This document shows, piece by piece, positions 19,292-64,000 of a stretch of 64,000 nt of DNA. The notes under the pieces were generated by a model. The model was not told where the DNA came from. It saw nothing but the letters and a program-made list of their open reading frames with translations, and did no database searches. Position numbers and translations under genes: made by a program. Every line of letters begins with the position of its first letter. Within the stretch, counting starts at the first letter, position 1. The DNA comes from Cyanidioschyzon merolae (taxonomy: Eukaryota), in NCBI GenBank assembly GCA_000091205.1, contig AP006489.2. One strand, given 5' to 3'.

Positions 19292-20163
19292 GCCGGAGTG
19301 GTCAGGACAGCGGTTTTGTGCTCAACACTTAAGTACGTTATGTATGTCGGGGAAACGCACCAAGCGTCAACTCCCCTTCCGCTGACAAGTTGTGGCAGAC
19401 ACAAAGTGCCTCTCAACTGAATGCCAAACACGAATACAACGTGTGGCGCACGCATGCACCATCATGCGTGCATCGCCGTGCGCACGCATGCGATAGGTCG
19501 ATGGCGCGCGCGCGCGCGCCGCTGCAACCGAATCGTTGACCGTTGAACGAATACGGAGGCGTACGCCAACGCCAACAACGCATCACGCCCACACGTGCTG
19601 GACACACGATGCCGATCCCGAAATACGACGCCGCTACGCTCCTGGACGTGGCGCCAACGAACGGCTCAACAGATTCGTGACAGGAGCAACAAGAACAACA
19701 ACAGTGACATCGCGAACGTGTTTCCTAGTTCGCGTAAAAGGCAAACGTGCAGCTGTACACCAGCGTTAGAAACTGGTTGGTGAGTTTTGAGGGGCACTTT
19801 TGAGTTGCAAGCGTTTGGAGGGTTTTTTAGAATTGTGGAGTTTGCTAGTTGTTGGTTGTAGTTGCCGTTCACGGAGCTAGGGTGCGAACACGACTTGAGG
19901 GCGTGGGGTGCTCGCCAGCACTCCGTTGTCACCGTGAAAATTCTGCAAGACTGCTCGGACGTGTTTTATTAGCTCTGAGTTCTATCGTCTGTGCAATTGT
20001 GATTTTTTTTGTTAGTGAACAACGAAGAAGAAGGTGGAAAACGAGTCGAGCAATCTAGCCGAAACGTGTGACCTCGCTCTGGGACGCGAATCTTGTTCGC
20101 TGAAACGCCCTATCGTCGAAAGACTGGAACCAAGAAGAATTCAAACGAAGCTGAAGGCCGCGA
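19292..20163. promoter_or_regulatory. Divergent intergenic region between NRT2 and nitrate reductase, presumed to be a bidirectional promoter.
   Basis: 872 bp lie between two divergently oriented start codons. The region contains a (GC)9 tract at about 19497-19515 and T-rich tracts. No specific binding site could be established by eye. Confidence 0.35.
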
Positions 20164-23109
20164 TTGTATGCTCGCTCGTGTCGACTCTTCAGTCAGTACC
20201 CCAATTGTGGATACCTTGCAAGGTCTCGGGACTGTCTATTCACGTACCACACGATGCACACTGTACCGGAGGGCTGCAGCTCCCCGCGTGCCGATGAGCA
20301 GACTAAGCTGATGCGCCAACAACCGCATGAGAACGGCACCAAACCGGCGATATTGTCGGAAGCGAGCGCGCTGCTCGCTGCAATGAGGCACTGGGAGGAG
20401 CAGCTCGCGCAGCGCCAGCTCCCCATCGACAAGCGAGATCAAAACACACCCGACGACTGGGTGCCTCGTCATCAGGCGATGGTGCGTCTCACGGGGAGGC
20501 ACCCGTTCAATGCCGAGCCGCCACTATGTTTGCTAGATCAGGATCTCACGAGCCAGGAACTTCACTATGTACGGAACCATGGAGCAGTCCCGCATCTGAC
20601 CCTGGGCACGCACCGCATTCATATCAGTGGCCTGGTAGAACGTCCGGGCGCGTTTTCTGTAGAGGAACTGCTCGCGCTGGGGGAGCTCGTCACGATCCCT
20701 GTGACCCTCGTGTGCGCTGGCAACCGGCGCAAGGAACTCAATCAAATACGCCAAAGCATTGGTTTCCACTGGGGTGCAGGCGGCGCCTCCACGTCCTTCT
20801 GGACAGGGGTACGTTTGGCGGACGTCCTCCGTCACTGCCAAGTCTGTGAATCTCCGAAAGCCCGTTATGTATGCTTCACTGGTGCTGATGAGCCAGCGAA
20901 AGGTCCGTACGGTACTAGTATACCGCTCGCGATGGCGCTGGATCCGCACGCTGACGTACTCCTAGCGGTTGCTCAGAATGGAGCGCCTCTACATCCGGAC
21001 CATGGGTATCCTGTTCGACTTTTGGTGCCAGGATGGATTGGCGGGCGCATGGTCAAGTGGCTGTCCCATGTTGAGGTTTCAGACCGCGAATCGCAGAACC
21101 ATTACCATTTTTTTGATAATCGCATCATGCCCCCACACGTGGATAAGGAGCGCGCCGACTCGGAGAAATGGTGGTATCGCCCCGAGTACCTTTTCAACGA
21201 GCTGAATATCAACTCGGCGGTAGTGCGCCCGCTGCACGATGAATTGCTTCCGCTGCACCATGCGAGCGAGCAGCATTCCTATCGTATCGAAGGCTACGCC
21301 TACAGCGGCGGTGGCAGACCCGTCACGCGTGTGGAGATCACTTTCGATGACGGTCAGCTTTGGAATCTGTGCGAGCTGCGGCATCCTTTTGAGCCGAACG
21401 CAGCCGGACGGCAATGGGCCTGGAGTCGCTTCAGCTTCAATGCATCACTCGTGCATTTGCTGTGTTGCACCGAGTTTGCAGTCAGGGCCTGGGATAGCAG
21501 CAACAATACACAGCCGCATCGCTGGACCTGGAACGTCATGGGTATGGGCAATAATGCGTGGTACCGCGTGCGCGTCTCACCGGTACCCGATCCCGGCACC
21601 GGACGTATTTCGCTGCGTTTCGAGCATCCTACAGTGCCGGGGCCGACGGCTGGCGGCTGGATGGGTTCCAGTACTGTCCCAGGAGCGTCGCACTCGGGGC
21701 AGCAACCAGCTGTGCCTGCACCAGCAACAGAACATGCACTGCGAGACGCCCCGGAGGCGAAGCGCGACATCGCCCAAATGGCTGAGCGGGTGCAGATGCC
21801 ACCTGTGCCGAACGCAGTTGGCAGCACGGTGCATGGCTCCAATGTGTACCAACAAATGATGCGCAAAAAGACCGCGGAAAAGCTCCAGCAGGCGCAACAA
21901 CGCCTCTATACAAGCGCCCAAGTTGAGCGGCACCAGAGTGAGACCGATCTTTGGATCGTAGTGCGCGGTCGTGTCTACGACGTGACGCGCTATCTGAACG
22001 AGCACCCCGGTGGCAAGGCGGCGATCATGATGAATGCCGGACAGGATTGTACCGAAGACTTTGAGGCCATTCACTCCGAGAAAGCCTGGAAGTTGCTGGA
22101 TGACTTTTACATCGGAGAATTGGCTCCTGCTGGGTCATCCGCAGATGCGTCGCTCTCGTCGTCGCCTCATCTGGCGTATACGGACTCGTCGACGGATCTG
22201 CTGCGGGAGCAGTTCTCCAGAGACGCAGTCATTCACGCCGATGCCGCTGACGGCGCCTGTACCGAGAGTATCGATGGATGCCGCCCGGCATTAGACCCAA
22301 AGAAATGGAAGGACTTTGTGCTCGCCAGCAAGTCGTATATCACGAAGAACACGGTGCGACTGCGCTTTGCTCTACCTGATGTCAACCAAGTGCTGGGTCT
22401 GCCTACAGGGAATCATTTGCTCATTCGGGCGCGAATTGAGAACAAGAATGTCGCACGGGCGTACACACCGACGAGTCTCGGCCACGAAGCCGGCTTCTTC
22501 GAGCTTGTGATCAAAGTGTACCGCGCGGGCGCGCATCCTTCATACCCGTCTGGCGGGAAAATGTCGCAGTATCTGGAACTGCTTCGTATTGGAGACACGG
22601 TGCAGGTCAAGGGCCCACTTGGGCACTTTAGCTACGTCGGACTTGGCGCGTACATGTTACATGGACGAGCTGGAAGGGCGCGGCGGTTCGCTTTTCTTTG
22701 TGCAGGCAGTGGCATCACGCCAGCGTTCCAGGTGATGAAAGCAATCCAGGTTGAGCTTCAAGAGCATGCGAAACAGTCATCTACACCGTTTCTGGATGCT
22801 ATATACCTGGTCTACGCGAATCGAAACGAGGACGAGATTCTGCTCTTCCAGGAACTCGAAGCATGGCGCCAGTGCGATGCGCGCTTTCAGTTCTGCTACG
22901 TACTGAGTCAACCGTCGGAAGCCATTTCCAAAACGTTTCCGGAGGCTGTCGTTGGCCACGTGAATCAGGAGCTGCTGGCAGCCCGTCTACCGGGGCCACG
23001 TAGTGATCTTATTATCGGCATTTGTGGTCCAGCGGGATTTCAGGATGATGCGTGCATTCCGGCACTGAAAGCTCTGGGATATACTTCGGAACAGTTTTTT
23101 ACGTTCTAA
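20164..23109 (+). CDS. Assimilatory nitrate reductase [NAD(P)H] with Moco, dimerisation, cytochrome b5 and FAD/NAD domains. The true start may instead be the in-frame ATG at about 20251 (MHTVPEG...).
   Basis: The Moco Cys motif VTLVCAGNRRKELNQIRQSIGFHWGAGGASTSFWTGVRL is present. The b5 haem domain reads YLNEHPGGKAAIMMNAGQDCTEDFEAIHSEKAWKLL. The FAD motif RAYTPTS and the NAD motif CAGSGITP are present, and the canonical domain order is preserved in 981 aa. Confidence 0.95.
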   Translation: MYARSCRLFSQYPNCGYLARSRDCLFTYHTMHTVPEGCSSPRADEQTKLMRQQPHENGTKPAILSEASALLAAMRHWEEQLAQRQLPIDKRDQNTPDDWVPRHQAMVRLTGRHPFNAEPPLCLLDQDLTSQELHYVRNHGAVPHLTLGTHRIHISGLVERPGAFSVEELLALGELVTIPVTLVCAGNRRKELNQIRQSIGFHWGAGGASTSFWTGVRLADVLRHCQVCESPKARYVCFTGADEPAKGPYGTSIPLAMALDPHADVLLAVAQNGAPLHPDHGYPVRLLVPGWIGGRMVKWLSHVEVSDRESQNHYHFFDNRIMPPHVDKERADSEKWWYRPEYLFNELNINSAVVRPLHDELLPLHHASEQHSYRIEGYAYSGGGRPVTRVEITFDDGQLWNLCELRHPFEPNAAGRQWAWSRFSFNASLVHLLCCTEFAVRAWDSSNNTQPHRWTWNVMGMGNNAWYRVRVSPVPDPGTGRISLRFEHPTVPGPTAGGWMGSSTVPGASHSGQQPAVPAPATEHALRDAPEAKRDIAQMAERVQMPPVPNAVGSTVHGSNVYQQMMRKKTAEKLQQAQQRLYTSAQVERHQSETDLWIVVRGRVYDVTRYLNEHPGGKAAIMMNAGQDCTEDFEAIHSEKAWKLLDDFYIGELAPAGSSADASLSSSPHLAYTDSSTDLLREQFSRDAVIHADAADGACTESIDGCRPALDPKKWKDFVLASKSYITKNTVRLRFALPDVNQVLGLPTGNHLLIRARIENKNVARAYTPTSLGHEAGFFELVIKVYRAGAHPSYPSGGKMSQYLELLRIGDTVQVKGPLGHFSYVGLGAYMLHGRAGRARRFAFLCAGSGITPAFQVMKAIQVELQEHAKQSSTPFLDAIYLVYANRNEDEILLFQELEAWRQCDARFQFCYVLSQPSEAISKTFPEAVVGHVNQELLAARLPGPRSDLIIGICGPAGFQDDACIPALKALGYTSEQFFTF

Positions 23110-24342
23110 AGCCGTTTGTTTGCGATTTTTTTCTCCCAGTGATAAGCAGAAGACTTCGATGCAGTCTCGTCGCAGTGCTTGTCATACAAGCCAATACCGC
23201 GCTGCTCGCACCAGACGTGCACCCGCAACCTTCCTCTGAGTCTACGCAGTTCGCACGCTTTACCCCAAGGTGGAAAGCGCGTCAGCCAGCGCACCGGATT
23301 CGTGCATGCTGGCCATGCGATGCCATACGCAACGCGCCCGAGCCAATGAACAGCCGACGACCGCACTCGCTGCCCAGGCACGCGTTCCTCCGTGCCCCTG
23401 GACCGCTCAGCAGCACTGGCGCTCCAGGCGGGTCCCAGAGCTTCGAACGAGCACCTACGCCGCGACCGATGCCATACGAATTGTGCAAGAGGCGTGCACC
23501 TACCAAAGTGAATCTGTATTTCCTGGAAAGCGCACGACGGCCCCATGATGGGCCATACGCTTGAAGACCGCACAAAAAATTCGGAATCTCTGCGACGTCC
23601 TGATCTCTCTCTGACGCGAAGCGCCGGCATCGCACACCGCGGAACCCGGCAAATCGTGTGGCGGCGGTAGCGCCCGGCAGCGCATCGTCAAACCGGCGAT
23701 GATCAGCATATGGCATGCCAATCAGCGACAATAATGGATCATTTAGTTCCAAAAATTACAAACTTACCATCGCTCGGTAGATCGCCGAGTCGCATGTACA
23801 TTGCGGACGATGCGCAGCCGCCGTGCGTGCAGCGACCACCTGAACGGATGGCGCAGCTGATCGACTCGCGGTGACCCGCAGCGTTCGCCGTCTCAGATTC
23901 GGAACGGAAACGGATCGGATACCGATGGACTCGGGCGTCTCTATTGCCCAAAGCTTGCCTGCGCTGCGACCATATAGCGTCGCAGCAAGAAGCGAAAACT
24001 GAGCCTCATGGCACCGACCAAGTGCTGTGTCTTTCGCTGCTGCGCGCGAGCTGTGTTTGGGCGTAGCACTGCCTAGTGTCGGCGATTTGGCTATTCCCTG
24101 GTGCTAGCGCGCTGACACAAATGAGGTGCTCTGAATTTTTACGGTCACTGAAAAAGACGGCAGATAGCCCCTTGGTCGGCGCTTCGGTTTTAACAAGACT
24201 GCCAGGAGCCCGCGGCAACTCTGACATCAGCCTCTGCTATCGGTTCCCGCCTCATAGGCTGCACCCTTGAGGAATTCGTTCCAGCACGCACCCTGATCGC
24301 GTGCTTACCCGAGAATGCTGTTCATGGATTCGCCAGCAGCAG

Positions 24343-26403
24343 CTACGATACGGGCGCTGCCGGCACCCCATCCCAATAACGTTGCGCATACGCCTCGAGT
24401 TGCGCCTTCCCAACTCGATCGCAAAAGTCTCCAAAGGACTCGTCCGGCTCGCGTGCGCTTTTCCAGAATACAAACACCGGCTCCAGGACGCGCTCCACCT
24501 GATCGTCCGTCACCCGATCGATATACGGCCACGCGAGGCGCGTCTGCATCGGGCTCCCGCCCAGCCACACCTGATACGTACAATTCGGACCTGATCCGAC
24601 GAATCCCAACTCGGCCATGTACGGACGCGTGCACCCGTTCGGGCATCCAGTCATGCGCATCACGAACGATGCGTGCGGCGAGATGCCGACTTTGGACAGC
24701 AGCTCGCGCACGCGCTGCACGTAGCGCGGCATGACACGCTCCGCCTCCGTGATCGCCGGCGGACACAGCGGCAACGCTGGACACGCCATCGCGTCACGCA
24801 TCAGCGGATCCAGTGCGGATGCTGCCGTCTCGACGCCGAACGACGCCAGCAGCGTCTCGACGTCAGGGCGCGCTGTCGCTGGCACCTGCGTGATGAGAAG
24901 GTTCTGCTGCGGCGTACATACCAGGGGAAAGTTGAAGCGATCCGTTAGGGCACGGAGTGCTTTCTTCAGCTCGTCTTTGATCCGCCCGTTCTGTACGTAG
25001 AGGCCGAAAAACCAGCGTCCGTCTCCTTGCTCGCGCCAACCCAGATAATCCTGGAAAGTCCACGGCGGCATGGAGCGTATCGACTCTAGCGCACTGCCAC
25101 CACCCACCATATACGACTTGACGAGTTCGCGGAATCGATCGATGCCCAGCCGATGCACCAGGTACTTCATCCGGGCGTTCGTGCGAACTGCACGATTGCC
25201 GTGGTCCCGCTGGGCAGCCAAGATCGCTTTGAGTGTGTCGTACAGCGCCGCTGCCGGTACGTACCCCAGCGGATCGGCAGCACGCGCGAAGGTCTCCTCT
25301 TTGTTATGAGTGCGACCCATGCCGCCGCCGACGAGAATATTGGCACCTTCCAGTTGACCCTGCGCATCACAAAAAACGACGATTCCAATGTCGTGTGTGT
25401 AGATGTCGATAGAATTATCCCCGGGAACAGTGACACCAACTTTGAACTTGCGCGGAAGGTACAGCTTTCCGTAAAGCGGCTCGACGGAATCCTGCAGAAC
25501 CTGACCACGCCCGTTATCCTCCGTCATGAGTCGTCGAACTTCGTCCATGTCCAGCTCCTTCTTCCAGTACTCGATGCTGGCGGCAAGCTCCCCATCGAGC
25601 CACAGATCCGCAAACGCGTGCGACTGAATCGCGAACAGCTCTGCCACCATTCTGGCAACGTGTCGTGCCTGCGCATACGCGGCATCGACGAAGGGCGCCG
25701 GCGGCGCGATGACGTTGCGCGAGCAGTCGCCGCTCGCACCATACAGCCCGCCGCCCGCTCGCACGATGCTCTGGACGACGGTTTTCAGATTGGATTTATG
25801 GATGCCGTGGATTTGGAACGAAGAGCGCGTCGTGAGCCGCAGCGTCTTGTTCCCATAGGTTTCACTGATGTCGTCGAGTGTCGTATACAGCGAAGGCGGA
25901 CACTCGCCGGCGGGCATTTTCAGACGGAGCATGAACTGGTATTTCTTGAGCTCCCCGCGAACACGTTGATCTCGGTTATCTTGGAGATATCCGCCATGGA
26001 ACTTGATAAGTCCGATGCAGTCATCGGAGATGAAGATCTGGTCGTTGCCCAGTTCTTCCATTAATGGGTGACGAAGATAGTCCGAGTTCAGTTTCGGCAA
26101 CTCGTATGGATTTAGCTTGAGCTGGTCGAGTGTCCCGTCACGGATTGCTTCCTCGATATGCTTCCGCGTTGTGATCGGCACGACCGTATGCTTCTTCCGA
26201 GACTGTTCAGATGAGAGGTTTGCTATGATGTTCCGCCGGGCGGTTCGGCACTGCCGTTGGCGTCGTAGTCGGTCTCGCAACAGTACCTCGGTCAACGGAT
26301 AAACGCCCGGTGCTGCGGAACCGGTGGGTGCCAAACCTCTGCGAGCGCCGACTAGAGGTTTTGCGTACGTGACGAACATCATCAGAGTATACCGCACGCG
26401 CAA
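24343..26403 (-). CDS. Siroheme/[4Fe-4S] sulfite/nitrite reductase hemoprotein, ferredoxin type and CysI/SiR-like. By position it is the presumptive nitrite reductase of the cluster.
   Basis: [77 protein letters not shown] closely matches the siroheme-cluster region of E. coli CysI (CPLAMAEAERFLP...[33 protein letters not shown]) and plant SiR (PLCPLAITEAERGIP...[24 protein letters not shown]). There is no FAD/NAD(P)H domain in the 686 aa. The N-terminus is Arg-rich and presequence-like. Confidence 0.8.
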   Translation of the reverse strand: [686 protein letters not shown]

Positions 26404-27229
26404 CTATGTTGAAGGCGCTGCTCTGGCACGAGCTCGAATGGCCAGCAGAGCTTAAACGAAGTAAGGCAAAAGCCATCCTGAATTCATGCGTTCCTATCGA
26501 TCCCACGGGTGCGTGTTATCCAACGGATCACGGATCCGTTGAGCATCGCAGACCTGTCCAGTTAAGTCTATAGTTGGCTCGTTTTGAATCTCTTCGCAAA
26601 GGCGCGCAGCGTGCCCCACGCGCACACGTGCCGAAGATTCGTGCGATGCCGATCCGGCCTCATAGCGGACACGTGTCGCAAGGAAATGCCGTGCACGCAG
26701 CGTCCTTCCCATGGCCGTTATGTACAGTATGATTCATGTTAATTGTTTTAAGTGGACAAGTCTTGACACATGCCAGTGTTCTCCAACCGTGCGCTTCCTA
26801 TCAGCGCGCGGTGAAGCATCGCTCGATTCACCTACTTCCAAGTTCCATAACCCTTACCTCTTCTTGGATATACTAGCCGCTTCATACGTTCTATCGTTCG
26901 CCGCGTGCCTGCCCTGCTGCATCTGGAATAGCGATTATAGTGCCGGTGCGGTCGTAGCACGGTTACGGAACGGCGTTGCAGTTCCACAGAGGGCGTCGGC
27001 GCGAGAGTATACATGAATATCCACACACAGACGCCTCTCAGCTATTCTTGACCGGCCGACTTCTATCGGTTTCAGTTTCTGCTAGAACACTTCCAGCTTG
27101 AGAGGCTGCACCACAAAACTCGATCGCGACAGCTCCTCGGATGTCGTCTTCAACACTGCATATCGTCGGATATTGATAGCGGCGTCAAAGTCTCGGTTCA
27201 CGAATTCCGTCTGTTCATTGGCTCAGGTG

Positions 27230-27600
27230 GGACTCAACAAAGCAAGGATTCCTAGAACTCGCGCCTTCTGTGCAAGCAAGGCCTCGTCATCGCACCGTCG
27301 GGAAGCACCTGTTGACGCCAATCTCCCCTCTTGTTCTTCGTATTCTTTTTCACTTGCTCTTCTTCGCTCGATGGTATGCGAGAGGAGGATTGTTTTCGTT
27401 TTTCCTTTCGCGGCAGCCGGCGACAGCGGGCCCCCAGGATCCCTGCCGTCCACGCCCGTTCCTTTCCCTTGAATTTTATTTCTCCAAATGAAAGCACTTT
27501 GAGCACATCTGCTGTACGCTGCGAGAAAGTACTTGATGACATGCACCCGGGTCTGAAACACATTTGAGTTGAACGACGGTAAGATTCATATGCAACGCTA
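27230..27600 (-). mobile_element. Diverged fragment homologous to the 5' end and N-terminal K/R-rich region of the Fanzor-like element at 57.24-57.65 kb.
   Basis: DNA similarity of about 75% by eye between ...cccctcttgttcttcgtattctttttcacttgctcttcttcgctcgatggtatgcgagaggaggattgttttcgtttttcctttcgcggcagccggcgacagcgggcccccaggatcc... (27320-27450) and 57360-57470. The peptide similarity DPGGPLSPAAAKGKTKT versus DPGGPGSPAAREKKQKT holds in the same frame and orientation. It ends about 70 bp before direct repeat copy 2. Confidence 0.55.
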
Positions 27601-38692: not shown

Positions 38693-40300
38693 CGATGACT
38701 TTTGAAGTACATGGAACGTATAGCCATGTTTGATTTTGTTTGTTTTTCTGGCAGGTATGCAACGAAAGGAATGCGTTTCGCAGACTGGGGAAAGGTCGGC
38801 AAGAGGCTCGATGGCGCCACTACTGGCTAGCGAAGAGAGGCCTTCGCATCAGAAGCAGCACAGAGTGCCTCCCTGGGGTCCGAGTGCACGAGCCACCTTT
38901 TGCGTCCGTTCGATATAGACCGCAAATATCAGACCAAGGCTCATGATCGCATCGTAGACTCTTCTGCATGGAGCTTTACGACCACCACCGTAGTGAGCAG
39001 CGGCAGATATCTGCGACCAATACGAAGCATTCGAGCAACACCGCAAAGCGCACTGGCGAGATACCTTGCTGTTAACCGAGAGGAAACGGGAAGACGTGTT
39101 TGCGAGGACGTCAAAGACCGGACGGAATATCAATCTGTATGCACATTGCGCAGCATCTGGACCAGCGTCTACCAAAGAGACTCATTCGCACCCGTTCAGC
39201 CCAGATGAAGACAACGTCTTCGCGATGGTGGTGTTCGTGCATCCCGAATCCAGGTGCATCGAAGCACTCGCCGTACCTGTAGATCAAGAGCACGGAGCCA
39301 GCGACCCAGGAAGAAACCAGATGAAGCTGCTCGATCTCCGGGGATTCTCTCTGGTAGGCAGCTGGGAATGATCGGCACCAGAGGGTATACCAGAAAATGG
39401 AATGCTGTTATCAGCACCAATCGCGACGCTCCGAGCTCTGCATCCAGCAGCGGGCGATGCTTGCGTCCGTTTCATTCAGAGCGTGCCAAAAACGTCCAAA
39501 CAGTTGATGCACGCGATACTCAGCGGGAATTCGGGACACCGCACCGGAGTCGCCGACAGTTTCGGCCGTATGGAGGCAACAAGCGCGCAAGTGTCGGGTT
39601 CTTCACTGATTTCGAACAGAAAATGACGAGAGGTTTGCGTCGTTTCGCGATAGCCTTCGGCGCTGGGCTTGAAGTTGCGCACACGCCCTGAACTCCTGCG
39701 CTCCGTCGACGAAAGCCGGCAGTGCGCACGGGAATCTGCGCTATACGATTCCCATCGGTGACTGAATCCCGGGCGACATCGATGCATCACGAGCGTGGGT
39801 GCTTGCTGCGACACGAATAGAAACAATCGTATGAAACAGCGTCGGATGCACGCCATGGTGTCCAGAAGGCTGAGCGGACGTCAGTTGGCGAGGCAATCGA
39901 AAAGCATTGCCCAGCTCGTGTGTGATGCCACCGGCTATCATGCACGCGAGCTCTCTCTCTCTCTGTGACGACTCGAACGCCTCCATTATTCACTGGGTAT
40001 GACCAGTGCTTCGAGAGCGTCCAGCGGCCTTGTGTCGAGCGAACGTTCCCGAAAATCGTTTCGTAATCAGCCTGGGCATCTTGCTGAAAAGCTGCAGCCT
40101 TGCGTCCAGAAACACAATGCATCAGTGACCAGGAGAACGCGCACTGGATGCTCACCCCGCAGGAACACACCGCTGTGCTTCGGGTGAGCAATCCATCAAG
40201 GCTGCAGCGACGTGCACCCATCCACCGGTAACGGTATTCCTCAACAGTATTTGAGCGATCATGGGGTTCCACGAATCAACTGTAGAGCGTATATCGCACA
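38693..40300 (+). repeat. Inverted-repeat arm A (about 1.6 kb).
   Basis: It is the reverse complement of 44945-46558 at about 99% identity. Mirrored ORF pairs are 39066..39371(+) with 45879..46184(-), 39476..39856(-) with 45394..45774(+), and 38900..39208(+) with 46042..46350(-). Boundaries were mapped by eye at cgatgacttttgaagtacatgg and tgcgatatacgc. A (CT)n/(GA)n indel near 39950/45290 shifts the frame between the two copies. Confidence 0.88.
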
Positions 40301-41161
40301 GCGGTTGCCGTATCTGCCTAGGTGCTCGAAGATACTTGCCCGCAGAAACGCTGCTTGGTTTCGCGACACCTGAATTCGACTGGTAGGCAGGGGCCTGCAA
40401 TGCGCCGCCATCGGGGATGGAGAAACAGTTGCTTCGGAAGCCGCTTTCTAACAGGCCGTTACAATCAGACAGCACCGGTTTGGGAACTCGCGTCGACGTC
40501 GGCAAGTCTGTACTGCCTCAATGCAGCGGCCTCGATAAAGCCGGCACTCAGTAAAATGCCGGTTCTACTGAGTTTCGATTTTATCGGCGAACCCTGTTCT
40601 GGGCATGGCTGTTGTAAAGGCATCTGCAGAAGCGGGAGTGCATACGTCCACAGCGGCTTCCGTTTTGCACATTGGGCCGTGTCTGATTGAATGCATCGAT
40701 CACCTCCCGTGAAAATTCCTTTGAGAAAAGACTACAACGGAGGCGCTTCCATCCATGCCGCCCTCTGGCGGCAACAGATCCGCCTAATCCCCATCGCAGG
40801 GTACCAGGTGCAGTACTGCGGACAAGTGATATCCGCGGAAGCGACACTCCAGCCGACATCAGCCGCCTGCATTGATCGAAGTGACCGCCGCTTCTCACTC
40901 GACCATGCACTGTGTGAGCATTCGAGAGCAGCACGCAATTCATCACATACTATGTTCGACAAAGCCTGCGGTGTGCATTTCGCCAGAGATGCCAAAGACA
41001 AAACCGTTGTCGATGGCGGCTGGCCGAACCAGTTCAAAAAAGCGTCTCCAGGCATCTCTGAAGTTGTACGTTATGGAGCTTCGGGCCGAGAATCCGCATG
41101 CACTGCTCAGCGGCACGCCGCAGAATGTCCCGACGAGAACGTGCCTACACCACACCAGCCT

Positions 41162-44604: not shown

Positions 44605-44944
44605 ACACGCATGCACAGGGTGCGGTATACCGTGCCTGCGGCCAGCGCTCTACCTCTATGTGTGCGCTGAGCGTTGGGCGGTGCTGCGTTCGCAGGTCGT
44701 CGTTTTCGTGATATCCTAAGGCTTGCGATGCCTGTAGCGTTAATCGTGCGAAAGCGGATTCGTCACGGGAACTTGACCGAAAGTCGCCTGGTGCGTGCAC
44801 CGCAACAGCACTCGATCCCGATGCGAAAGATCCTATGCGGTCTGATTCCTTTGTTCGTGGTAAAGGGAAAGCACCGTCAGAGGCTTGGGCCGCTCACGCG
44901 CTGCTCCGAGGCAGCCTGCTGCCGTCGTGGTATCGACGGCAGGC

Positions 44945-46558
44945 TGCGGTGCGATATACGCACTACAGTTGATTCGTGGAACCCCATGATCGCTCAAATA
45001 CTGTTGAGGAATACCGTTACCGGTGGATGGGTGCACGTCGCTGCAGCCTTGATGGATTGCTCACCCGAAGCACAGCGGTGTGTTCCTGCGGGGTGAGCAT
45101 CCAGTGCGCGTTCTCCTGGTCACTGATGCATTGTGTTTCTGGACGCAAGTCTGCAGCTTTTCAGCAAGATGCCCAGGCTGATTACGAAACGATTTTCGGG
45201 AACGTTCGCTCGACACAAGGCCGCTGGACGCTCTCGAAGCACTGGTCATACCCAGTGAATAATGGAGGCGTTCGAGTCGTCACACAGAGAGAGAGAGAGC
45301 TCGCGTGCATGATAGCCGGTGGCATCACACACGAGCTGGGCAATGCTTTTCGATTGCCTCGCCAACTGACGTCCGCTCAGCCTTCTGGACACCATGGCGT
45401 GCATCCGACGCTGTTTCATACGATTGTTTCTATTCGTGTCGCAGCAAGCACCCACGCTCGTGATGCATCGATGTCGCCCGGGATTCAGTCACCGATGGGA
45501 ATCGTATAGCGCCGATTCCCGTGCGCACTGCCGGCTTTCGTCGACGGAGCGCAGGAGTTCAGGGCGTGTGCGCAACTTCAAGCCCAGCGCCGAAGGCTAT
45601 CGCGAAACGACGCAAACCTCTCGTCATTTTCTGTTCGAAATCAGTGAAGAACCCGACACTTGCGCGCTTGTTGCCTCCATACGGCCGAAACTGTCGGCGA
45701 CTCCGGTGCGGTGTCCCGAATTCCCGCTGAGTATCGCGTGCATCAACTGTTTGGGCGTTTTTGGCACGCTCTGAATGAAACGGACGCAAGCATCGCCCGC
45801 TGCTGGATGCAGAGCTCGGAGCGTCGCGATTGGTGCTGATAACAGCATTCCATTTTCTGGTATACCCTCTGGTGCCGATCATTCCCAGCTGCCTACCAGA
45901 GAGAATCCCCGGAGATCGAGCAGCTTCATCTGGTTTCTTCCTGGGTCGCTGGCTCCGTGCTCTTGATCTACAGGTACGGCGAGTGCTTCGATGCACCTGG
46001 ATTCGGGATGCACGAACACCACCATCGCGAAGACGTTGTCTTCATCTGGGCTGAACGGGTGCGAATGAGTCTCTTTGGTAGACGCTGGTCCAGATGCTGC
46101 GCAATGTGCATACAGATTGATATTCCGTCCGGTCTTTGACGTCCTCGCAAACACGTCTTCCCGTTTCCTCTCGGTTAACAGCAAGGTGTCTCGCCAGTGC
46201 GCTTTGCGGTGTTGCTCGAATGCTTCGTATTGGTCGCAGATATCTGCCGCTGCTCACTACGGTGGTGGTCGTAAAGCTCCATGCAGAAGAGTCTACGATG
46301 CGATCATGAGCCTTGGTCTGATATTTGCGGTCTCTATCGAACGGACGCAAAAGGTGGCTCGTGCACTCGGACCCCAGGGAGGCACTCTGTGCTGCTTCTG
46401 ATGCGAAGGCCTCTCTTCGCTAGCCAGTAGTGGCGCCATCGAGCCTCTTGGCGACCTTTCCCCAGTCTGCGAAACGCATTCCTTTCGTTGCATACCTGCC
46501 AGAAAAACAAACAAAATCAAACATGGCTATACGTTCCATGTACTTCAAAAAGTCATCG
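44945..46558 (-). repeat. Inverted-repeat arm B (about 1.6 kb).
   Basis: See arm A. It ends about 165 bp upstream of the TBCE start codon. Confidence 0.88.
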
Positions 46559-53211: not shown

Positions 53212-54822
53212 ATGGAAACGAAAAACTGCGGCAAGCATTCGGATTATGAGAGCTCTGAGGAAGACTTTTTCGTTCTTAGTCGAGACGCTCCGGAACTGGA
53301 CGCGGACGTGCTTGCCGGCGAGTGCGAAGCTGTGGGCGCCTCCGACGATGACGCTATGTTTGCAGGACCCTCGTGGGAAGCCAAGACGACGCTTTCTGCA
53401 GCAGCTCGAGAGCGGAGACGACGCCGAAGCTGCCGCTTGTTGGGACGTTACGGGCCAACCTGGGCGGACTTGTCACCTGAACGCGGTAGTGCGTGTCCGA
53501 GCGTTCACGCCCGAATCGCAGCCGCAACCGCTTCAGTCGCGCCAGCGCAACCTGTAGACCGCAATGCACCAGCGGAAGATTCGTGTACGCCCCGTGGGAC
53601 AGCGCAATCAGAAGAAGAACGTGGAACTACGGACGAGTCCGGACGTCGAGTTTATCCGTCACCGGAGGCGAGTTTAGAGCAGTTGCTACGACGACGACGA
53701 CGACCGCTACGGACCGAGCCCGACGTCTGCTCGCAACTCGGTTCTGAACGCACCTCGCAGGCGAGTTTCGGACGAAACGCAGCGAGACCTATGAATGTTG
53801 GTGACAGCTCTAGCGACGAGGATGTCAAGCTCGTCGCAGAGTATCCAGCAGAGTCCGTAGAGCAGCAGTCACGAACAACATCGAATGAAAATCCACCGGT
53901 ATCGCAAGAGCCGATGATCACCGGCCTTTGTCGAGAAAGAGCGATGAACCGGAGAGGATCACAGAGCTCGGGATGCACGGGAACCAGTGGCAACCTGGTT
54001 TCTTCCGAGGAATCTGACGGACGTACACGGGATAAGCACGCGGAAAAGAGCCTGGTCCACCATCAAAACCACCAACAACAACAACAACAACACCAGGTTG
54101 ATATCGAGGCAGCGAGTCGCGATACAGGGCGCAAGACTGCCAGATCTCGACACAACAAATCCGGGGATCGTCGCACGGCCAAAAGCCTTCGCTCCAATCC
54201 AGAAGCCACTCGCCAGGAGACGGTACATGCACCGCTCAACCGACCTATTCCTATACGGATCATGATGCAAGGCATGGAAGAGCCAATGTATTTCACAGTT
54301 TTCCCGTACACCATACTGGATGAGATATTTGCCACATTTGCCCGGATGCACGGATTCGACTGGCACAACGATCCTCTGCATTTCTATCGGGAAGCCGACG
54401 CCACCCTCATATTGAGCGGTACGCGTACCATAGACTTGGCACTCCAAGCTGGCGAAACAATCCGAGCAGTTCTTCGTAGCGGTGAGCTATCGGCTCCCAT
54501 CCAACGGAACGCCTCTACTGCGGTGAATGCTCTTGCGTCATCCACGCGGCGCACGACGACCTCTGCGGGAACAGTAACATGGCTGCGGATTCGCTATAGC
54601 AGCACGGAAGCGCCTCGTTGCTACGCTTTTGCCATGCACGGCCCAGAGGCAGCTCCACTTGGTGTCCTATTCTCTCGCTTCTGCAAAGACGTCGGCATCT
54701 CCGAGAAACAAACACGATTTCTCGACCCCGACGGTGAGCCGCTCGACCCACAGAGCACAGCAGCCGAGGCGGGGCTTGAGCCAGACGACCTAATCGAGGC
54801 TCGCGTCCACAACGTTCCGTAA
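53212..54822 (+). CDS. Rad60/Esc2/NIP45-family-like protein, with a disordered acidic/Ser-rich N-terminal region and two C-terminal SUMO-like domains.
   Basis: Two beta-grasp-like segments near the C-terminus are PIRIMMQGMEEPMYFTVFPYTILDEIFATFARMHGFDWHNDPLHFYREADATL and TWLRIRYSSTEAPRCYAFAMHGPEAAPLGVLFSRFCKDVGISEKQTRFLDPDGEPLDPQSTAAEAGLEPDDLIEARV. The (CAA)n tract at about 54073-54090 encodes polyQ. Confidence 0.4.
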   Translation: METKNCGKHSDYESSEEDFFVLSRDAPELDADVLAGECEAVGASDDDAMFAGPSWEAKTTLSAAARERRRRRSCRLLGRYGPTWADLSPERGSACPSVHARIAAATASVAPAQPVDRNAPAEDSCTPRGTAQSEEERGTTDESGRRVYPSPEASLEQLLRRRRRPLRTEPDVCSQLGSERTSQASFGRNAARPMNVGDSSSDEDVKLVAEYPAESVEQQSRTTSNENPPVSQEPMITGLCRERAMNRRGSQSSGCTGTSGNLVSSEESDGRTRDKHAEKSLVHHQNHQQQQQQHQVDIEAASRDTGRKTARSRHNKSGDRRTAKSLRSNPEATRQETVHAPLNRPIPIRIMMQGMEEPMYFTVFPYTILDEIFATFARMHGFDWHNDPLHFYREADATLILSGTRTIDLALQAGETIRAVLRSGELSAPIQRNASTAVNALASSTRRTTTSAGTVTWLRIRYSSTEAPRCYAFAMHGPEAAPLGVLFSRFCKDVGISEKQTRFLDPDGEPLDPQSTAAEAGLEPDDLIEARVHNVP

Positions 54823-54852
54823 AGCTCGGCATCCGCAGCTTCCAGCTCGCTA

Positions 54853-55119
54853 TCACTGTACGGATGGAGCACCACCTGCCGCTGGCATGGGTTGGCCCTC
54901 CTGCAACAGCTCTCCAATACGCTGTACGGCGCCCATGTACTTGAAAACGCAGCGATCCACACAGACACCCTCACCAGTTTGCAACTCGCCGTCGTGATAC
55001 CGCGTCACGCACTTGCGGAAGCATGAATCCGTCATTTTTTGAAACAGGTCTGCGTAAAAGCTCATTTCCCTCCGAGCCAAGTCCACGGGGTTTACCCCTG
55101 CAGCAAGTGCACTAGCCAT
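54853..55119 (-). CDS. TIM10: Mitochondrial import inner membrane translocase subunit TIM10 (small Tim, twin Cx3C).
   Basis: The 88-aa MASALAAGVNPVDLARREMSFYADLFQKMTDSCFRKCVTRYHDGELQTGEGVCVDRCVFKYMGAVQRIGELLQE carries twin C-x3-C motifs and aligns with yeast Tim10 (NNCYKKC...[22 protein letters not shown]). It is the in-frame C-terminal part of track ORF 54853..55869. Confidence 0.75.
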   Translation of the reverse strand: MASALAAGVNPVDLARREMSFYADLFQKMTDSCFRKCVTRYHDGELQTGEGVCVDRCVFKYMGAVQRIGELLQEGQPMPAAGGAPSVQ

Positions 55120-55869
55120 TGACACAGCCAACAACAAACGCCTTTGAAAAGAAAAACGCTGCCGCCAGTGGTGCACAGTAGTGGCGGCGAACGCGCCCCG
55201 GACAAGCAGTCTCCAGCTGACGGGCAGACGCATCCCAGCCTTGCTGGGCAGGCCACCCACCACTGGTTTCAACTTTTTCTCATATAGTTGGACTTTGAGA
55301 GGTTGTCCAACAAAGTTCTCTCTTGTCTGCTGTGGAGGTCTTTTCTCAATCGCCGCGCATCTCCTTATATTGACGGCGGCGTTAAAGTCTCGGTTCACAA
55401 ACCGCATACGTTTCTTGCCGTCGTTGGTTGTACTTACGAATGCGAGTAGCCCTCGCACTTTTGTTCTCCTCTCCATTTGCACCTCCGGCAGCGGTCCGTA
55501 CTTTGCTATGTCTTCAGGACTCCCCTGGCGCTTTTCCATCTCGACCCTTTGAAGTGTACACTCCAGCTCATGGTGTGTATCGGACGTTCGGAACTCATCT
55601 ATCCGTATCGTAACAAAACGCCGTGCATTCTCCTTGTACGTTCTTGTCGTTGGAGCTGGCGGAGTCCCTTTGTGGGTCTTCCAGCGCCCCACTCCGTATG
55701 CTACTACGAGCCTCTGACTTTCAAGCTCTCTCAAGGCACTCAACTCATTGAAAAATTCGCGAACGCCCGCTGCTGACCACAATACGGATTCATACGCAAA
55801 CGAGCCCACCGGGGCTTTGTATACTCTTCCCACAGCGCCTCCCAAGGAGCAACATGAACATCCATGCAT
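55120..55869 (-). pseudogene. Fanzor/TnpB-like nuclease, C-terminal segment (RuvC-II Glu, a degenerate zinc-finger region, RuvC-III). It reads through in-frame into TIM10.
   Basis: RFVTIRIDEFRTSDTHHELECTLQRV has the E(x)TS motif of RuvC-II. The expected CxxC...CxxC zinc finger is missing. FVNRDFNAAVNIRRCAA is RuvC-III. No stop codon occurs before the TIM10 ATG. Confidence 0.55.
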
Positions 55870-57068
55870 TTCAGAAAAGCTTCAAAGTCCGCTGCGCGGC
55901 TCGTCACCTTGCTCATAGCTTCCAGGTGCTTCTTCAATCCAGCATTCTCTATCTCGATTTTCTTCCTTGCATTCATTATACCGGATTCTCGGTAGTATCT
56001 CGCTCTCGAGAACCTCAAACGACGCATGTCGTTCTGACGTAATTTACTGTGCGTACCGTATTCCGCACGCTGGGGTACTGCGATGGTTATGATATTTGTG
56101 TTTCCGGGGTCCGCGCCAACGACAAAGTCGTTATTCTCTACCTCTTGCGTCGCAGGATCCTCCTCTTTGTTTTCCTCATGCTTCGCCGCGCCAACGACAA
56201 GGTCGTTATCCTCTACCTCCTGCGTCGCAGGACCCGCCTTCTCCTTGTCTTCATCCTTCGTGACGGGCGCAGCCGAGGGAGGGACTGGCCGGGCTCTCTT
56301 CAACCGCCGATAGTGTATACACAAGGCTACTCCATCGGTTTCAATCATCAAAGTGAACAATTTTTGCTTGCTCACTCTCAAACGTTTAAAATTGAAGATA
56401 TTCTTCCAGTACGTCTCCCGGTTCTCGCCGGCGAAGTCCTCCCTGCTAACGTTGAACTCCGAACAGATCTCCTTCATGATGCCATGAAGGATTCCGGAGT
56501 CGATAGTCCCAAAATGTGACTTGATATTGGACAATGGGACCACGTTGAAGCGCTTCCCCATTAGGAAATCCTTCCGTCTCTCCCACTCTTCATTTGTCTC
56601 TTCACGCAGCATCACCGCTGCCTTGGCTTCGAGCTCTCGGTCCAGAAACACGAAATAGCACAGAATGAGGCGATCGTATCTTTCCTGATCTTTGCTCAAC
56701 TCTGATACCTTGTCTGTTGGATTCGGTAGCCCCAGTACCGCACGATGCTCTTGTATAACCGTACGGATCGCAGAAGCTTCATTCGTGCTCACTTTTGACG
56801 CCTTCTTGTCGACAAATTCGACCTCATCTTCACGCTTGCGATCTTTCATGATGCCATTGATAATCGTCCATTTTCCATTGCGAGAGATGCGCGGGTAGAG
56901 TGCAACCACGGCGCGTATCATGAAACGTTCGAGGTCCATTGTCAAATGGTTCTTCAGGTCCGTGAGGTACTTCTTCGCCCCGTAGGTGTACATATCCCGG
57001 TCACCCTTGTAGCGAGTACCCTCGAAGCTGTAAAAGGGGTGTTTTTCGTGGAGGGTATGCACTAGCAC
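55740..57068 (-). pseudogene. Fanzor/TnpB-like nuclease, N-terminal segment (WED/REC-like region plus RuvC-I), containing an internal 75-bp tandem duplication.
   Basis: ...[54 protein letters not shown] shows a 25-aa tandem repeat (DNA 56116-56190 and 56191-56265). The second copy carries the RuvC-I aspartate motif. The ORF terminates at 55740 out of frame with the downstream RuvC-II/III segment. Confidence 0.55.
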
Positions 57069-58614
57069 ATTTTCCCTCCGCGTGTTCCCTGCGCCAACCC
57101 TCAGGTGACGAATAAAGGTTGCCGAAAACTCCCTCTGGAATCTCGACTGTTTCCATGTGCGTCACATCGCGATACATCTCCCTCGCCAAATGCATCAGTC
57201 CTGACGACGCCCTGGCAATACGCTTGGAGTACGACTAGGCACGTTTTTTGATGGCGCCTCGCAACTTTTCCCTGTACGAATCCTTGATATGTCCAAGAAG
57301 ACCGGCTTTCACTACCATTTCGTCGTACAGGTGTCTTTCTTGCCGCCTTCGACGTAGGGCCTCCCCTCTTCGGTCCTTCTTATCTTCCTTTTTTTCCGGA
57401 CTCGGCACTGTTTTTTGTTTTTTTTCTCTGGCAGCCGGCGACCCTGGGCCTCCAGGATCGTCGACTTGCTTTTTCATAACTTTCCTTTTTTAGATTTTTT
57501 TGAAAAAGAACGTTCTTTGAACGCTTCTGTTATATACTGCGAAAAAACGCTTGAATACACTTGTTTGAGGTTTGAAACACAATTGAAATCAAAACTATAC
57601 TTGGATATGAAGCTCACGAAAATCTGACTTTTACAGCTGAACGACACGCAACTGATCAAGATCGCGTTTCCCTTCAACGGCGGCGGCATGCGCGTCGTGC
57701 CAGTTGACTACTGCCAGCTCTGCCAGATGCACTCACTGACCGCGATGCGTGCACCGCGCGAGACGCTACACGGATCGATGAAGGACACGTGTCCGACGTC
57801 GCATTAGCACATGCGTGTTCTCACCGACGCACTGCAGCGGAAATCAGGTGTCCTAGATCGGAAACTCACGTAGAGTGATCCCCTGCGCTAGGCTCTGTCG
57901 CTGGTGCCGAAACTACTGCCCATCGCCGTACTACCCTAGCATACAAGGGGATGCTGGGGCCTGGCACAAAACTCAGCGATGACTCCAGCACACGCGTAGC
58001 CATCGTAGCATCTTGCGCTTTTGTGGGTAAGGCATGCATCAACCTAGTCATTAGGAGTTTCGATAGTTGTATTTATCGTACACAAACTAGGTGTAGTCGT
58101 GTACCCGAGTACGAATAATATACGTTTATTCCCGATTCTTGTTATGCATGCCGCACGGACGCTGGAATGAGGAACAGATTTGAATTCTGCTTTTATCCGG
58201 CGTCATCGGCGGGCACTGATGACAGTTCAGTATATTGCCATGCTGCCGTCGTTGTCTAACTTATGGTGTCTGCTTCGTTCGAAGGATCCGGTGATCTTGG
58301 TAGAGGCATCGCACACATGTAGCGTGCATATGTAGCACCGCGTTCGACCGACGCATTTCGCCCGGAACGATCGAGGCACCAGCAGCACAAGGCGCTGCAC
58401 CGACCTGAAGGACGGGCGGAGAGGCCCGGCAAGAGTAAATATTGTATAAAGTAGCATATTTAGGAATCTATATGATCCATTTTGCATACGCTGCACGAAA
58501 CGCTTGTCGCACTTGCGAACGCTTTGCAAGCGCTATCCGACAGCGCGTTTCAAGGGCGAACGCGTGCGTCTCGACGTAAAACCCACTGTGTGGAGGCGCT
58601 AGGAGCGCTCTAGA

Positions 58615-60084
58615 ATGCAGTCGCTCGTTGGATCCACTGCAAATAGAGACCCGGATGGCGTGGCAGAAGAGGCGAGACCTGGACACGTTGGTTTCGATCC
58701 GCAGCGCCCCTCGTTCTGTCTACAAGGGGAACGCGAGAAAATCGACGCTGAACGGGCACGGGCTCTCTTCACACCGCTTCGAGATGCAAGCATCGCAACA
58801 ACCTCGGGAACAGAAGCTGATCCGAGCTTTGAACGAGTGTCGCTTTCGGGCAAGTCATTCGATGTAGAGGCGGCGGGCGTTGCTGCGGAGCATATTGCGC
58901 TGTTACGACCTGGTTCGGTGCGGTACCTACAACTGGCGGATGTGATTGCTGGCCAGTCCGAAATCGAGGCCCTGCAGGTGCTGGAGTTGCTCGCAGCAGC
59001 GTTCGCTGCTCATCAAGTGGTAGAGCTGGACCTCAGTGACAATGCACTGGGCGCTAAAGGTGTTCGAGCGTGCGCAGCGCTGTTCCAGCGCTCGGAACGG
59101 CTCGAAAGCCTGATCCTCTGTAACAACGGCCTCGCTGCAGACGCGATCAAGCTCATTGTGGACGCGTTGACGGGATCCGAAAAACGTGTATACCTCAAAA
59201 AACTACATCTCTTCAACAATCTATTGAAAGACGAGGGTGCCCTCGCTTTGGTGCCGCTTATCGAGCGAGCACCACTGTTGGAGGATTTCCGTTTCGCCTC
59301 GCTGCGGGTCTCTCGAGGCGGGAGCATTGCCGTGGCTGAAGCTCTGACCCGCGTAGCGCCAACGCTTAGACGCCTCGATATGACCGATAATGTTATCGGC
59401 AAGGACGGCGCGAAAGCGCTTGCCCAGCTCCTCGAACAACAGACGCACCTCGAGGAATTGTACCTGCGAGATTGCCTGCTCACCGATGCGGGTGCACGCT
59501 GTATTTTAGAGGCACTCATGCGACAGACGGAGCAACCGCGCCTTCGCGTACTGGACTTGTCAGGAAACGAGCTCATCGGCGCCGCAACTGGTTCACTGTT
59601 AGGCAAATTCCTTGAACATTGCGCCCCGACGCTAACACATCTGCGCCTCGACGAGAACGAACTGGGTGACGGGGGGGCACTTGCGATCGCCAATGCATTG
59701 GCCAGGGATCCGCAGCGTTTTCGACTCGTTGAACTCTCACTATATCTGAACGATATTGGCGGCCGCGCTGCTTTCATGCTCGTCCAGCGCTGTGTTCGGA
59801 TTGCAAGTATGTGCGTCTTGAATCTGAACGGGAATCGTCTGGGATGCATCGCGCTAGAGCACATAGAGCGACTGGTTGCTGGTACACCTCTTGCATCCAG
59901 TTTTGTGGATCTGGACGAAAACAATGAATCCGAGGACGAAGATGCCACCTCCGATATCTTCCAGCAACTCCGCATCGTGGAGGGATCAGACTCGGCCGAA
60001 GCCGAAGCCGAAGCCGACGCAATCACCGCACAGTTGCACGATCTGCAGGTCACCACAGCACCCAATGCCAGCGAGGCGTCGTGA
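58615..60084 (+). CDS. Ran GTPase-activating protein (RanGAP)-like protein with ribonuclease-inhibitor-type LRRs and an acidic C-terminal tail.
   Basis: Repeated 28-29-aa LRR_RI units are visible (LEELYLRDCLLTDAGARCILEALMRQ..PRLRVLDLSGNELIGAATGSLLGKFLEHCAPTLTHLRLDENELGDGGALAIANAL). The acidic tail DENNESEDEDATSD...AEAEAEAD follows. Confidence 0.55.
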   Translation: MQSLVGSTANRDPDGVAEEARPGHVGFDPQRPSFCLQGEREKIDAERARALFTPLRDASIATTSGTEADPSFERVSLSGKSFDVEAAGVAAEHIALLRPGSVRYLQLADVIAGQSEIEALQVLELLAAAFAAHQVVELDLSDNALGAKGVRACAALFQRSERLESLILCNNGLAADAIKLIVDALTGSEKRVYLKKLHLFNNLLKDEGALALVPLIERAPLLEDFRFASLRVSRGGSIAVAEALTRVAPTLRRLDMTDNVIGKDGAKALAQLLEQQTHLEELYLRDCLLTDAGARCILEALMRQTEQPRLRVLDLSGNELIGAATGSLLGKFLEHCAPTLTHLRLDENELGDGGALAIANALARDPQRFRLVELSLYLNDIGGRAAFMLVQRCVRIASMCVLNLNGNRLGCIALEHIERLVAGTPLASSFVDLDENNESEDEDATSDIFQQLRIVEGSDSAEAEAEADAITAQLHDLQVTTAPNASEAS

Positions 60085-62713: not shown

Positions 62714-64000
62714 GAGTTACCAGCGAAAACAATGTAAACGCGTCACACTTGACGAGGCCCCAAGTAGCACGGCCTCCTCCGCAGACTCCGGAAGGCTAAA
62801 GCGCCTGCGCACAGCGCTGAAACACGAGCCGCGCACGCATCGCAGCGGCACGCATTGCACGCCTGCTGTCCTCGGCACGCATCGCAGCGGCCTGCGTGTA
62901 TCCTGGATTCTACGACATGCGTCTGCGCGATGCGTCATAGCACCCCAGAATAGGCTGAGACTGGCACGAATGGCGACGGATAGCGCATCCTATCGTGGTA
63001 AAGGCACGGCAACGAGAGGTACAGAGACTTGAAAGGCGAATGATCTGGGCGTTGGGCAGTATATTTTTTGCGCGTGCATGCTTGTGTGCGGCTTGACATG
63101 TACGCGTTGCGGGGGTCTTGGGCGCGCTCCGGCCTGCACTGGCTATCAGGTCCGAGCGCGGCAAATGGGAAACTGCCGGGGGAATATGCGTGGTGGTGCG
63201 GAACGATGGGCACGCTCTCGGGTGCTGATAACCATGGCGTCTGCGGGGATCACTGCTTTATGTCAGCGGTTCTGTGCGCCGAAACACCCGAGTGTTCCCG
63301 GTCTGCAGTGCGCATTCGTTCATGCGATGATACATGAGAATGTCGCATAATGCAGCACGATTGACGTTAATCATTTGAATAGCCAAAGCGTCCCGAGTCT
63401 ATGTATATGACGCTCCAGCGTTCGTGGTGCGTTCAGTCATGCGGTACCGTTCCAGTACCTTGCACCTGGAGCGAATCCAACGCCCTCTCTTCAAGCCGTT
63501 GAAGTGCTCGTTGGAAGTTGTTAGCGTTCTAGCAAAATACCCACACTGATGACGAAATCTGTCGAAATCACACCCTTGAAAACTTGCTCGATACGGATCC
63601 GTTGTGCGCTATGGAATCACGGAACATTTTCGAATGTTCATCGAGATGAAGTTTCGGTGCAGATAGTGCTTTCGTGTATTGTTTCTGGTAGAATTATACC
63701 ATAGCCAGCCGCTCATTTTCGATAGCCTCGCCACCTGACGTTCGGGTATCATACCACGCATTATCTCGTGCAACTGGCTCTGTTTTAGAAGCTTATACTC
63801 TACCAGTTTCAGCGTGCACCCGCGCTCATGGTGCGTGCATGACATGCCGAACAAATCTGTGGGGATCATAGAGCATCGATCATTGCAGTCAATGTATGCT
63901 TTCGCGGAACGAGCAGGCATGCAGGCCTTGCGCGCTACCGCAGGTCCAGCGTCGAGAGCTCCCTTCACCGAACGACGCGACATGTCGGTCGTTTCCTGTT

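Follow-up and report, generated by a model that had tools for sequence, protein, structure and literature searches.

What occupies the divergent intergenic region between a leucine-rich-repeat (LRR) gene (ATG 58615, + strand) and TIM10 (ATG 55119, - strand) of Cyanidioschyzon merolae, and does it bear on TIM10 itself? The region lies in a 64,000-nucleotide stretch of contig AP006489.2 (assembly GCA_000091205.1), referred to hereafter as the window. A first-pass annotation, made from the letters alone, had placed at 55120-57650 a degenerate Fanzor/TnpB-like RNA-guided nuclease element that reads in frame into TIM10. Our analysis identifies the locus, with a probability of about 0.9, as a single old, inactivated copy of CMe-1A, a Fanzor1 family of transposable elements of C. 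merolae. The window element is of an already catalogued type, the family having been described in this species in 2013 (Bao and Jurka 2013, Mob DNA 4:12; PMC3627910). Because it is a dead copy of a family catalogued in the same species, the locus by itself matters little, and it looks fused to TIM10 only because a stop codon was lost.

The RuvC-I, RuvC-II and RuvC-III motifs were present in canonical order on the minus strand, as the first-pass annotation had claimed, and the Asp-Glu-Asp triad that they carry was intact in the window copy. The central open reading frame (ORF; 55740-57068) was 65% identical by tblastn to P0001, an intact paralog of 752 amino acids (aa). A profile built from 90 relatives (alignment A6) and searched against the sequences of the PDB matched the Fanzor1 proteins of Parasitella parasitica (PpFz1; E 7.9e-20), Spizellomyces punctatus (SpuFz1; E 1.5e-12, profile positions 262-612) and Guillardia theta (GtFz1; E 4.5e-7). 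The AlphaFold2 model of P0001 made with the 90-sequence alignment reached a predicted local distance difference test score (pLDDT) of 83.3 and a predicted template-modeling score (pTM) of 0.81, compared with a pLDDT of just 35 when a 31-sequence alignment was supplied; disorder was confined to a repeat region at residues 378-469 (pLDDT < 50). In a Foldseek comparison of this model with the PDB, the best seven matches were all Fanzor1 (E 6e-16 to 9e-13), with target-normalized template-modeling (TM) scores of 0.50-0.74 to Fanzor1 chains and the best values (0.73-0.74) to SpuFz1, while Cas12 and Fanzor2 chains ranked after them (E > 5e-3). Across the 90 relatives the triad residues D484, E656 and D725 (P0001 numbering) were conserved at 90% or more. 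On the profile matches and the modeled fold the family is thus Fanzor1, which narrows the earlier call of a degenerate, eukaryotic TnpB-like element. Intact members encode a protein of ~750 aa that has the RuvC triad and folds like Fanzor1 but lacks a CCCC zinc finger, and by homology they may be expected to act as RNA-guided DNA endonucleases.

Further copies, which the first-pass annotation had proposed to seek as a means of setting the termini, were abundant: 335 related stretches turned up in contigs of metagenomes that contain Cyanidioschyzon, with copies 81-84% identical at the DNA level to locus L002, and the ends of the core could be defined from them. In an alignment of 44 distinct copies the common core starts at ..GCATCGCG.TCG.. 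(~57748), and it ends at ~55123-55135. Repeated DNA that includes a 5' module reaches ~58390, so that the repeated sequence (55123-58390) covers ~3.27 kb; the limit of 57650 given at first was too short on that side. A TATA-like box (TATATAA, 57536-57530) stands ~55 nt upstream of the ATG at 57477. Terminal inverted repeats (TIRs) were sought between the ends of the window element and none were found. CMe-1A is the one Fanzor1 family reported in C. merolae; it has ~150 copies, each ~80% identical to a consensus of ~3 kb, lacks TIRs, and has target-site duplications (TSDs) that could not be determined (PMC3627910). The window element resembles it in species, in a length of ~3 kb, in copies that are ~80% alike, in the absence of TIRs and of recognizable TSDs, in a single Fanzor1 ORF, and in a 5' part of ~635-640 bp that occurs as a repeat in its own right as well. 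Two differences were noted. Some CMe-1A copies are still intact (PMC3627910), whereas the window copy is a pseudogene, and among the copies examined here the 5' module was present in only a subset.

The lesions of the window copy are a nonsense codon, two 1-nt frameshifts and a lost stop. An in-frame TAG (57237-57235) stands where paralogs encode Asp (KKRVDSYSK), and one base is missing near 57117, beside a TTT; these two lesions add to the signs of decay listed at first pass. From the second of them the next frame extends to 55753. The split of the motifs over two frames at 55740-55869, which the first-pass annotation had noted, proved to be a change of frame at the T5 run (55755-55751), where the window reads AAT TTT TCA ATG AGT TGA against ..FANFFNELSAL.. 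in a paralog. Intact paralogs read ..AFANFFNELSAL.. at this site and the addition of one T restores that reading in the window copy. The family stop codon, TAG in L002 and in many other copies, is CGG at 55200-55198 (GTCTAGGGCG vs GTCCGGGGCG in the alignment with L002). An intact Fanzor1 protein could not be made from such a copy. Metagenome contig L001, an independent assembly of 2893 bp that is 98.6% identical to the window with flanking DNA included, shares the TAG and both frameshifts and is identical at the T5 site. Since L001 carries the same three changes, the lesions are real and common to related strains.

Two other features that had been taken as signs of decay were confirmed as present and turned out to be traits of the clade. 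The window copy has no CxxC..CxxC between RuvC-II and RuvC-III; it reads TSDTHHELECTLQRVEMEKRQ.. in the zinc-finger region, with one Cys, where the family consensus is TSYTHHELGCTLQRVEMEKCQ. Two CxxC motifs in this interval were found in 0/100 relatives (those carrying both RuvC motifs). The CMe family consensus is VDEFRTSYTHHELGCTLQRVEMEKCQ...RGLLALVSTT and that of the wider clade VDEFRTSk...VRGLLWCxST. The CCCC finger is reported as conserved in SpuFz1 and in ISDra2 TnpB in the Fanzor paper, and the Fanzor motif of Bao and Jurka is D-X-[TS][TS]-X-X-[C4]-X-RD (PMC3627910); PpFz1 has CxxC...C-x4-C at the aligned position. Because none of the 100 relatives has the two motifs, it is the clade that departs from the classical C4 motif while keeping the fold, and the missing finger of the window copy is a property of that clade and not decay. 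The same holds for the 75-bp duplication. Tandem Repeats Finder placed it at 56111-56260 (period 75, 2.0 copies, 84% matches), ending at the catalytic Asp codon, and the number of the 25-aa repeats varied from 1 to ~7 among family members, with the linker disordered in the model; the duplication is therefore a variable-number repeat of the clade. An exhaustive profile search returned 1501 clusters (50% identity) at E <= 0.001, mostly of 580-710 aa and matching the RuvC half. A Fanzor1 clade of this size without the finger that is treated as a TnpB/Fanzor hallmark may merit follow-up.

At its 3' end the element abuts the TIM10 gene, as had been claimed, and the region upstream of TIM10 consists of the conserved 3' tail, the expected place of an omega-RNA. 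The element ends 3-15 nt upstream of the TIM10 ATG. Because only these few nucleotides separate the two, the 5' untranslated region (UTR) of TIM10 must lie inside the 3' end of the element, and its promoter probably does as well. The C-terminal frame is indeed open into the TIM10 ATG without a stop; this run-on follows from the loss of the stop codon, after which ~26 codons are open and in frame, an outcome to which we assign, by our own estimate, a chance of roughly 0.1. We regard the in-frame run into TIM10 as an accident with no apparent function. Prokaryotic gene callers applied to related metagenome contigs give 'TIM10' proteins of 126-326 aa from read-through of 54853-55869, and these are an annotation artefact that has spread with the label 'import inner membrane translocase subunit TIM10'. 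It may be useful to annotators that naive ORF calling extends TIM10 N-terminally at this locus.

Several observations weigh against assigning the locus to CMe-1A and to Fanzor1. When the window ORFs were scanned with Pfam and NCBIfam, no TnpB model matched, and NCBIfam returned no match of any kind. Cas12f1-like_TNB scored below threshold (11.7-18.5 bits vs a cut-off of 26.3; E 0.002-0.3), and its match in the window, on RDFNAAVNI, had E 0.3. The hidden Markov model check proposed at first pass thus failed with TnpB-type models and succeeded with the 90-relative profile. Neither a phmmer search with the frame-repaired window protein nor a profile of 30 close relatives matched any PDB sequence. 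The protein that was modeled is P0001, 69% identical to the frame-repaired window protein, and not the pseudogene itself. The window copy also lacks the CCCC finger that belongs to the original Fanzor/TnpB motif definition, the covariation score of the 3' hairpins described below was marginal (0.153 vs 0.142 in shuffled alignments, reached by 14/500 shuffles), and we assign the element to CMe-1A by species and matching description rather than by alignment to the Repbase consensus. The low model scores, together with the fact that the close relatives (30 proteins, 50-99% identity, all from Joint Genome Institute metagenomes) carry DUF8286 (PF26935) as their sole Pfam label, could be taken to mean that an unrelated repeat contains the three motifs by chance. 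That reading is refuted, and we leave it practically no probability, because the family falls in Fanzor1 both by profile and by fold: the matches to PDB sequences (E down to 8e-20) span WED/REC through RuvC-III and the fold matches Fanzor1 over its whole length. For annotation it is of use to know that this Fanzor1 family bears no Pfam label other than DUF8286.

The change of frame allows other accounts of the same DNA. The first-pass annotation had left room for an intron, in which case the locus would be a functional Fanzor gene with its two frames joined by splicing, and the 130-nt overlap (55740-55869) of the long ORFs 55740-57068 and 54853-55869 makes one formally possible; the frames, however, join colinearly with intact paralogs, with no extra sequence and through one missing T, and the TAG and the second frameshift lie further upstream. 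C. merolae has very few introns. A single missing base explains the junction, and the intron was rejected as extremely improbable. That the frameshifts are errors of assembly or of homopolymer sequencing in an intact gene might be argued from their positions, in a T5 run and beside a TTT, but the TAG arose by substitution rather than by an indel, a mutation has also removed the family stop codon, and the recurrence of the TAG and both frameshifts in L001 makes errors very unlikely. We hold just as little hope for a domesticated chimera, in which TIM10 would have gained an N-terminal extension from the RuvC-II/III part of the element (the 338-aa ORF 54853-55869). The frame is open from 55869 to the TIM10 stop, and the gene callers' 126-326-aa products come from this locus, yet the reference annotation is an 88-aa protein; the Tim10 domain occupies ORF residues 267-324, so that an ordinary small Tim protein results if the internal ATG is taken as the start; codons 1-38 of the 338-aa ORF are element sequence read out of frame; and, at the odds estimated above, the ~26 open codons are unremarkable. 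An inactivated Fanzor1 copy next to an ordinary TIM10 gene accounts for the locus better than any of these, and its parts are listed in Table 1.

Table 1. Coordinates of the element, of TIM10 and of the nitrate-assimilation genes of the window.
Feature	Position	Strand	Remarks
5' module	57749..58390	-	~640 bp; repeated elsewhere, attached to only a subset of Fanzor cores
5' leader / promoter region of core	57478..57748	-	44 distinct copies aligned; conservation extends to the ATG
First 80 codons of Fanzor1 ORF	57235..57477	-	end at the in-frame TAG
N-terminal coding continuation, same frame	57117..57234	-	to the 1-nt frameshift near 57117; traced by translating three frames and aligning them with P0001/P0011/P0027
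Central coding segment (REC/WED and first RuvC part)	55756..57116	-	includes RuvC-I
75-bp (25-aa) repeat, two copies	56111..56260	-	immediately upstream of RuvC-I
RuvC-I motif	56123-56079	-	includes GADPG; Asp codon 56111-56109
T5 run, one base missing	55751..55755	-	frameshift dividing RuvC-I from RuvC-II/III
C-terminal coding segment	55201..55755	-	RuvC-II and RuvC-III; NUC region without CCCC zinc finger
RuvC-II motif IDEFRTS	55602-55582	-	
RuvC-III motif RDFNAAVNI	55392-55366	-	
CGG where the family has a TAG stop	55198..55200	-	alignment with L002 and with 57 copies
Non-coding conserved 3' tail	55123..55197	-	candidate omega-RNA scaffold or transposon end
TIM10 gene	54853..55119	-	88 codons and stop; host gene, outside the element
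Major facilitator superfamily (MFS) nitrate transporter	17585-19291		
Nitrate reductase	20164-23109		
Ferredoxin-type nitrite or sulfite reductase	24343-26403		

The 5' side of the element is a composite. In BLASTN comparisons with 80 related loci, homology to the window ended at 58383-58389 (L008/L009), at 58204 (L055/L058/L082) or at 58191 (L061/L062), and the module of ~640 bp behaved as a separable repeat, other copies bearing at least three different upstream modules. At least four unrelated and individually repeated upstream modules share one junction (~57748) with the same Fanzor core (in the window, L005, L020, L029 and others). The class of upstream module did not follow the subfamily defined by the 3' hairpin, which suggests that elements recombined with one another or captured modules repeatedly. 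The 5' 635 bp of CMe-1A are 95% identical to a separate element, TE-N2_CMe (PMC3627910), and by that description the 5' module of the window copy is probably TE-N2_CMe.

The flanks of 27 independent loci (metagenome contigs plus the window) were compared. In 16/27 of these loci a same-strand, ATG-initiated ORF of at least 150 aa began no more than 120 nt from the element's 3' end, compared with 15.8% for random positions in the same flanks (binomial P = 3e-7; P 1e-3 to 2e-8 with other thresholds). In L048 a gene resembling that for ribosomal protein L37a lies 38 nt downstream of the element end, and ORFs of 300-930 aa lie at 17-67 nt in eleven further loci, including L021, L024, L030 and L031. 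Because the count at the 27 loci so exceeds the control, the TIM10 arrangement is typical of the family. A placement bias upstream of co-oriented genes was not found in Bao and Jurka 2013 (PMC3627910). It is conceivable, although we think it rather unlikely, that a large finger-less Fanzor1 clade is non-randomly placed before co-oriented C. merolae genes, with copies such as the one at TIM10 retained as promoter or 5' UTR or with the family targeting gene 5' ends. The conserved 3' tail, as a putative omega-RNA scaffold or internal promoter, would then read straight into the start of the host gene. In a genome with few other transposons, a preferential seat right before co-oriented genes may merit follow-up.

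The tail itself comprises ~65-75 nt downstream of the family stop that are non-coding and about as conserved as the ORF (37-57 copies). Conservation fades past ..GGCGTT(T/G).., which puts the end of the window element between 55135 and 55123. The first-pass annotation had proposed a search for structure in this flank, and hairpins were found: a GGCG..CGCC hairpin and a terminal hairpin (55158-55139), the latter in two subfamily versions, CGTTCGA-CTT-TCGAACG and CGTTTTTC-TTTT-GAAAGACG. In alignment A7, 19 copies have C-G and 10 have G-C at pair 172-179 of the GGCG..CGCC hairpin, and in two copies pair 215-221 of the terminal hairpin has U-A in place of G-C. Paired cells amounted to 87% compared with 31-55% when the partners were slid, and 24 cells were changed on both sides compared with 14.2 ± 2.7 in shuffles, the structure in both cases having been derived from the same sequences. 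The folding z score was -2.84 for the tail of L002, an intact-like copy, and -1.41 for that of the window, and Rfam returned no match (E <= 1) for 54800-58700. Single-sequence folding proposed a long closing stem (AGUAGUGG/CCACUACU), which was rejected because about half of the copies would have an A-C mismatch in it, whereas the RNAalifold pairing accommodates the variation. The tail agrees with an omega-RNA scaffold or with a transposon end and is proof of neither. A guide RNA would be transcribed from this conserved, hairpin-bearing 3' end and read into flanking DNA; an omega-RNA from the window copy, if one were made, would carry as its guide the opening bases of the TIM10 transcript region.

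Exact protein matches identify the window as DNA of C. merolae 10D. The TIM10 ORF matches Pfam zf-Tim10_DDP (E 7.9e-17) and its 88-aa product is an exact match to that of C. merolae 10D (BAM79563.1 / XP_005535849.1); likewise, the nitrate reductase ORF of the window is identical at 951/951 positions to BAM79553.1 of the same strain. The nitrate-assimilation cluster to which it belongs (17585-26403) is the known cluster of C. merolae chromosome 7. Elsewhere in the window, an inverted repeat of 1.62 kb (38693-40311, + strand, and 44936-46558, - strand; 99.1% identical, ~4.6 kb between the arms) carries in each arm the remains of a Fanzor1-like sequence, badly decayed and interrupted by in-frame stops (tblastn to P0001, E ~1e-9). 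Two further degenerate Fanzor1 relics lie on the minus strand, one at 63573-63959, with 35% identity to P0001 across the RuvC-II/III region and a stop, and one at 27028-27441, a short, internally deleted remnant in which FVNRDFDAAINIR is retained.

Beyond CMe-1A, the closest systems of known structure are the solved Fanzor1 proteins, SpuFz1 (8GKH, 9CEU-9CEZ), PpFz1 (9CF0-9CF3) and GtFz1 (9CER-9CET). The CMe family resembles them in its whole-length fold (closest to SpuFz1, at the TM scores given above), in the order of the RuvC triad, and in the common sequences (V/I)DE(F/Y)(R/K)TS, RDxNAAxN and a C-terminal RPxxxxR tail. The sequences, in contrast, are only 13-15% identical, the NUC domain of the CMe family lacks the CCCC finger and has a conserved HH-x3-C-x9-C instead, and RuvC-I is preceded by an inserted 25-aa tandem repeat that is variable and disordered. 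Prokaryotic TnpB (IS200/IS605, IS607) and Cas12f are more distant. They belong with the CMe family to the superfamily of RuvC-based nucleases and share the RDxNAA motif, and the weak Cas12f1-like_TNB matches fall at the right position; Cas12 folds nevertheless rank after Fanzor1 and no model reaches threshold. The proteins of the CMe family, moreover, are about twice as long as those of the prokaryotic systems, have no TnpA partner and no zinc finger, and are found in a eukaryotic host.

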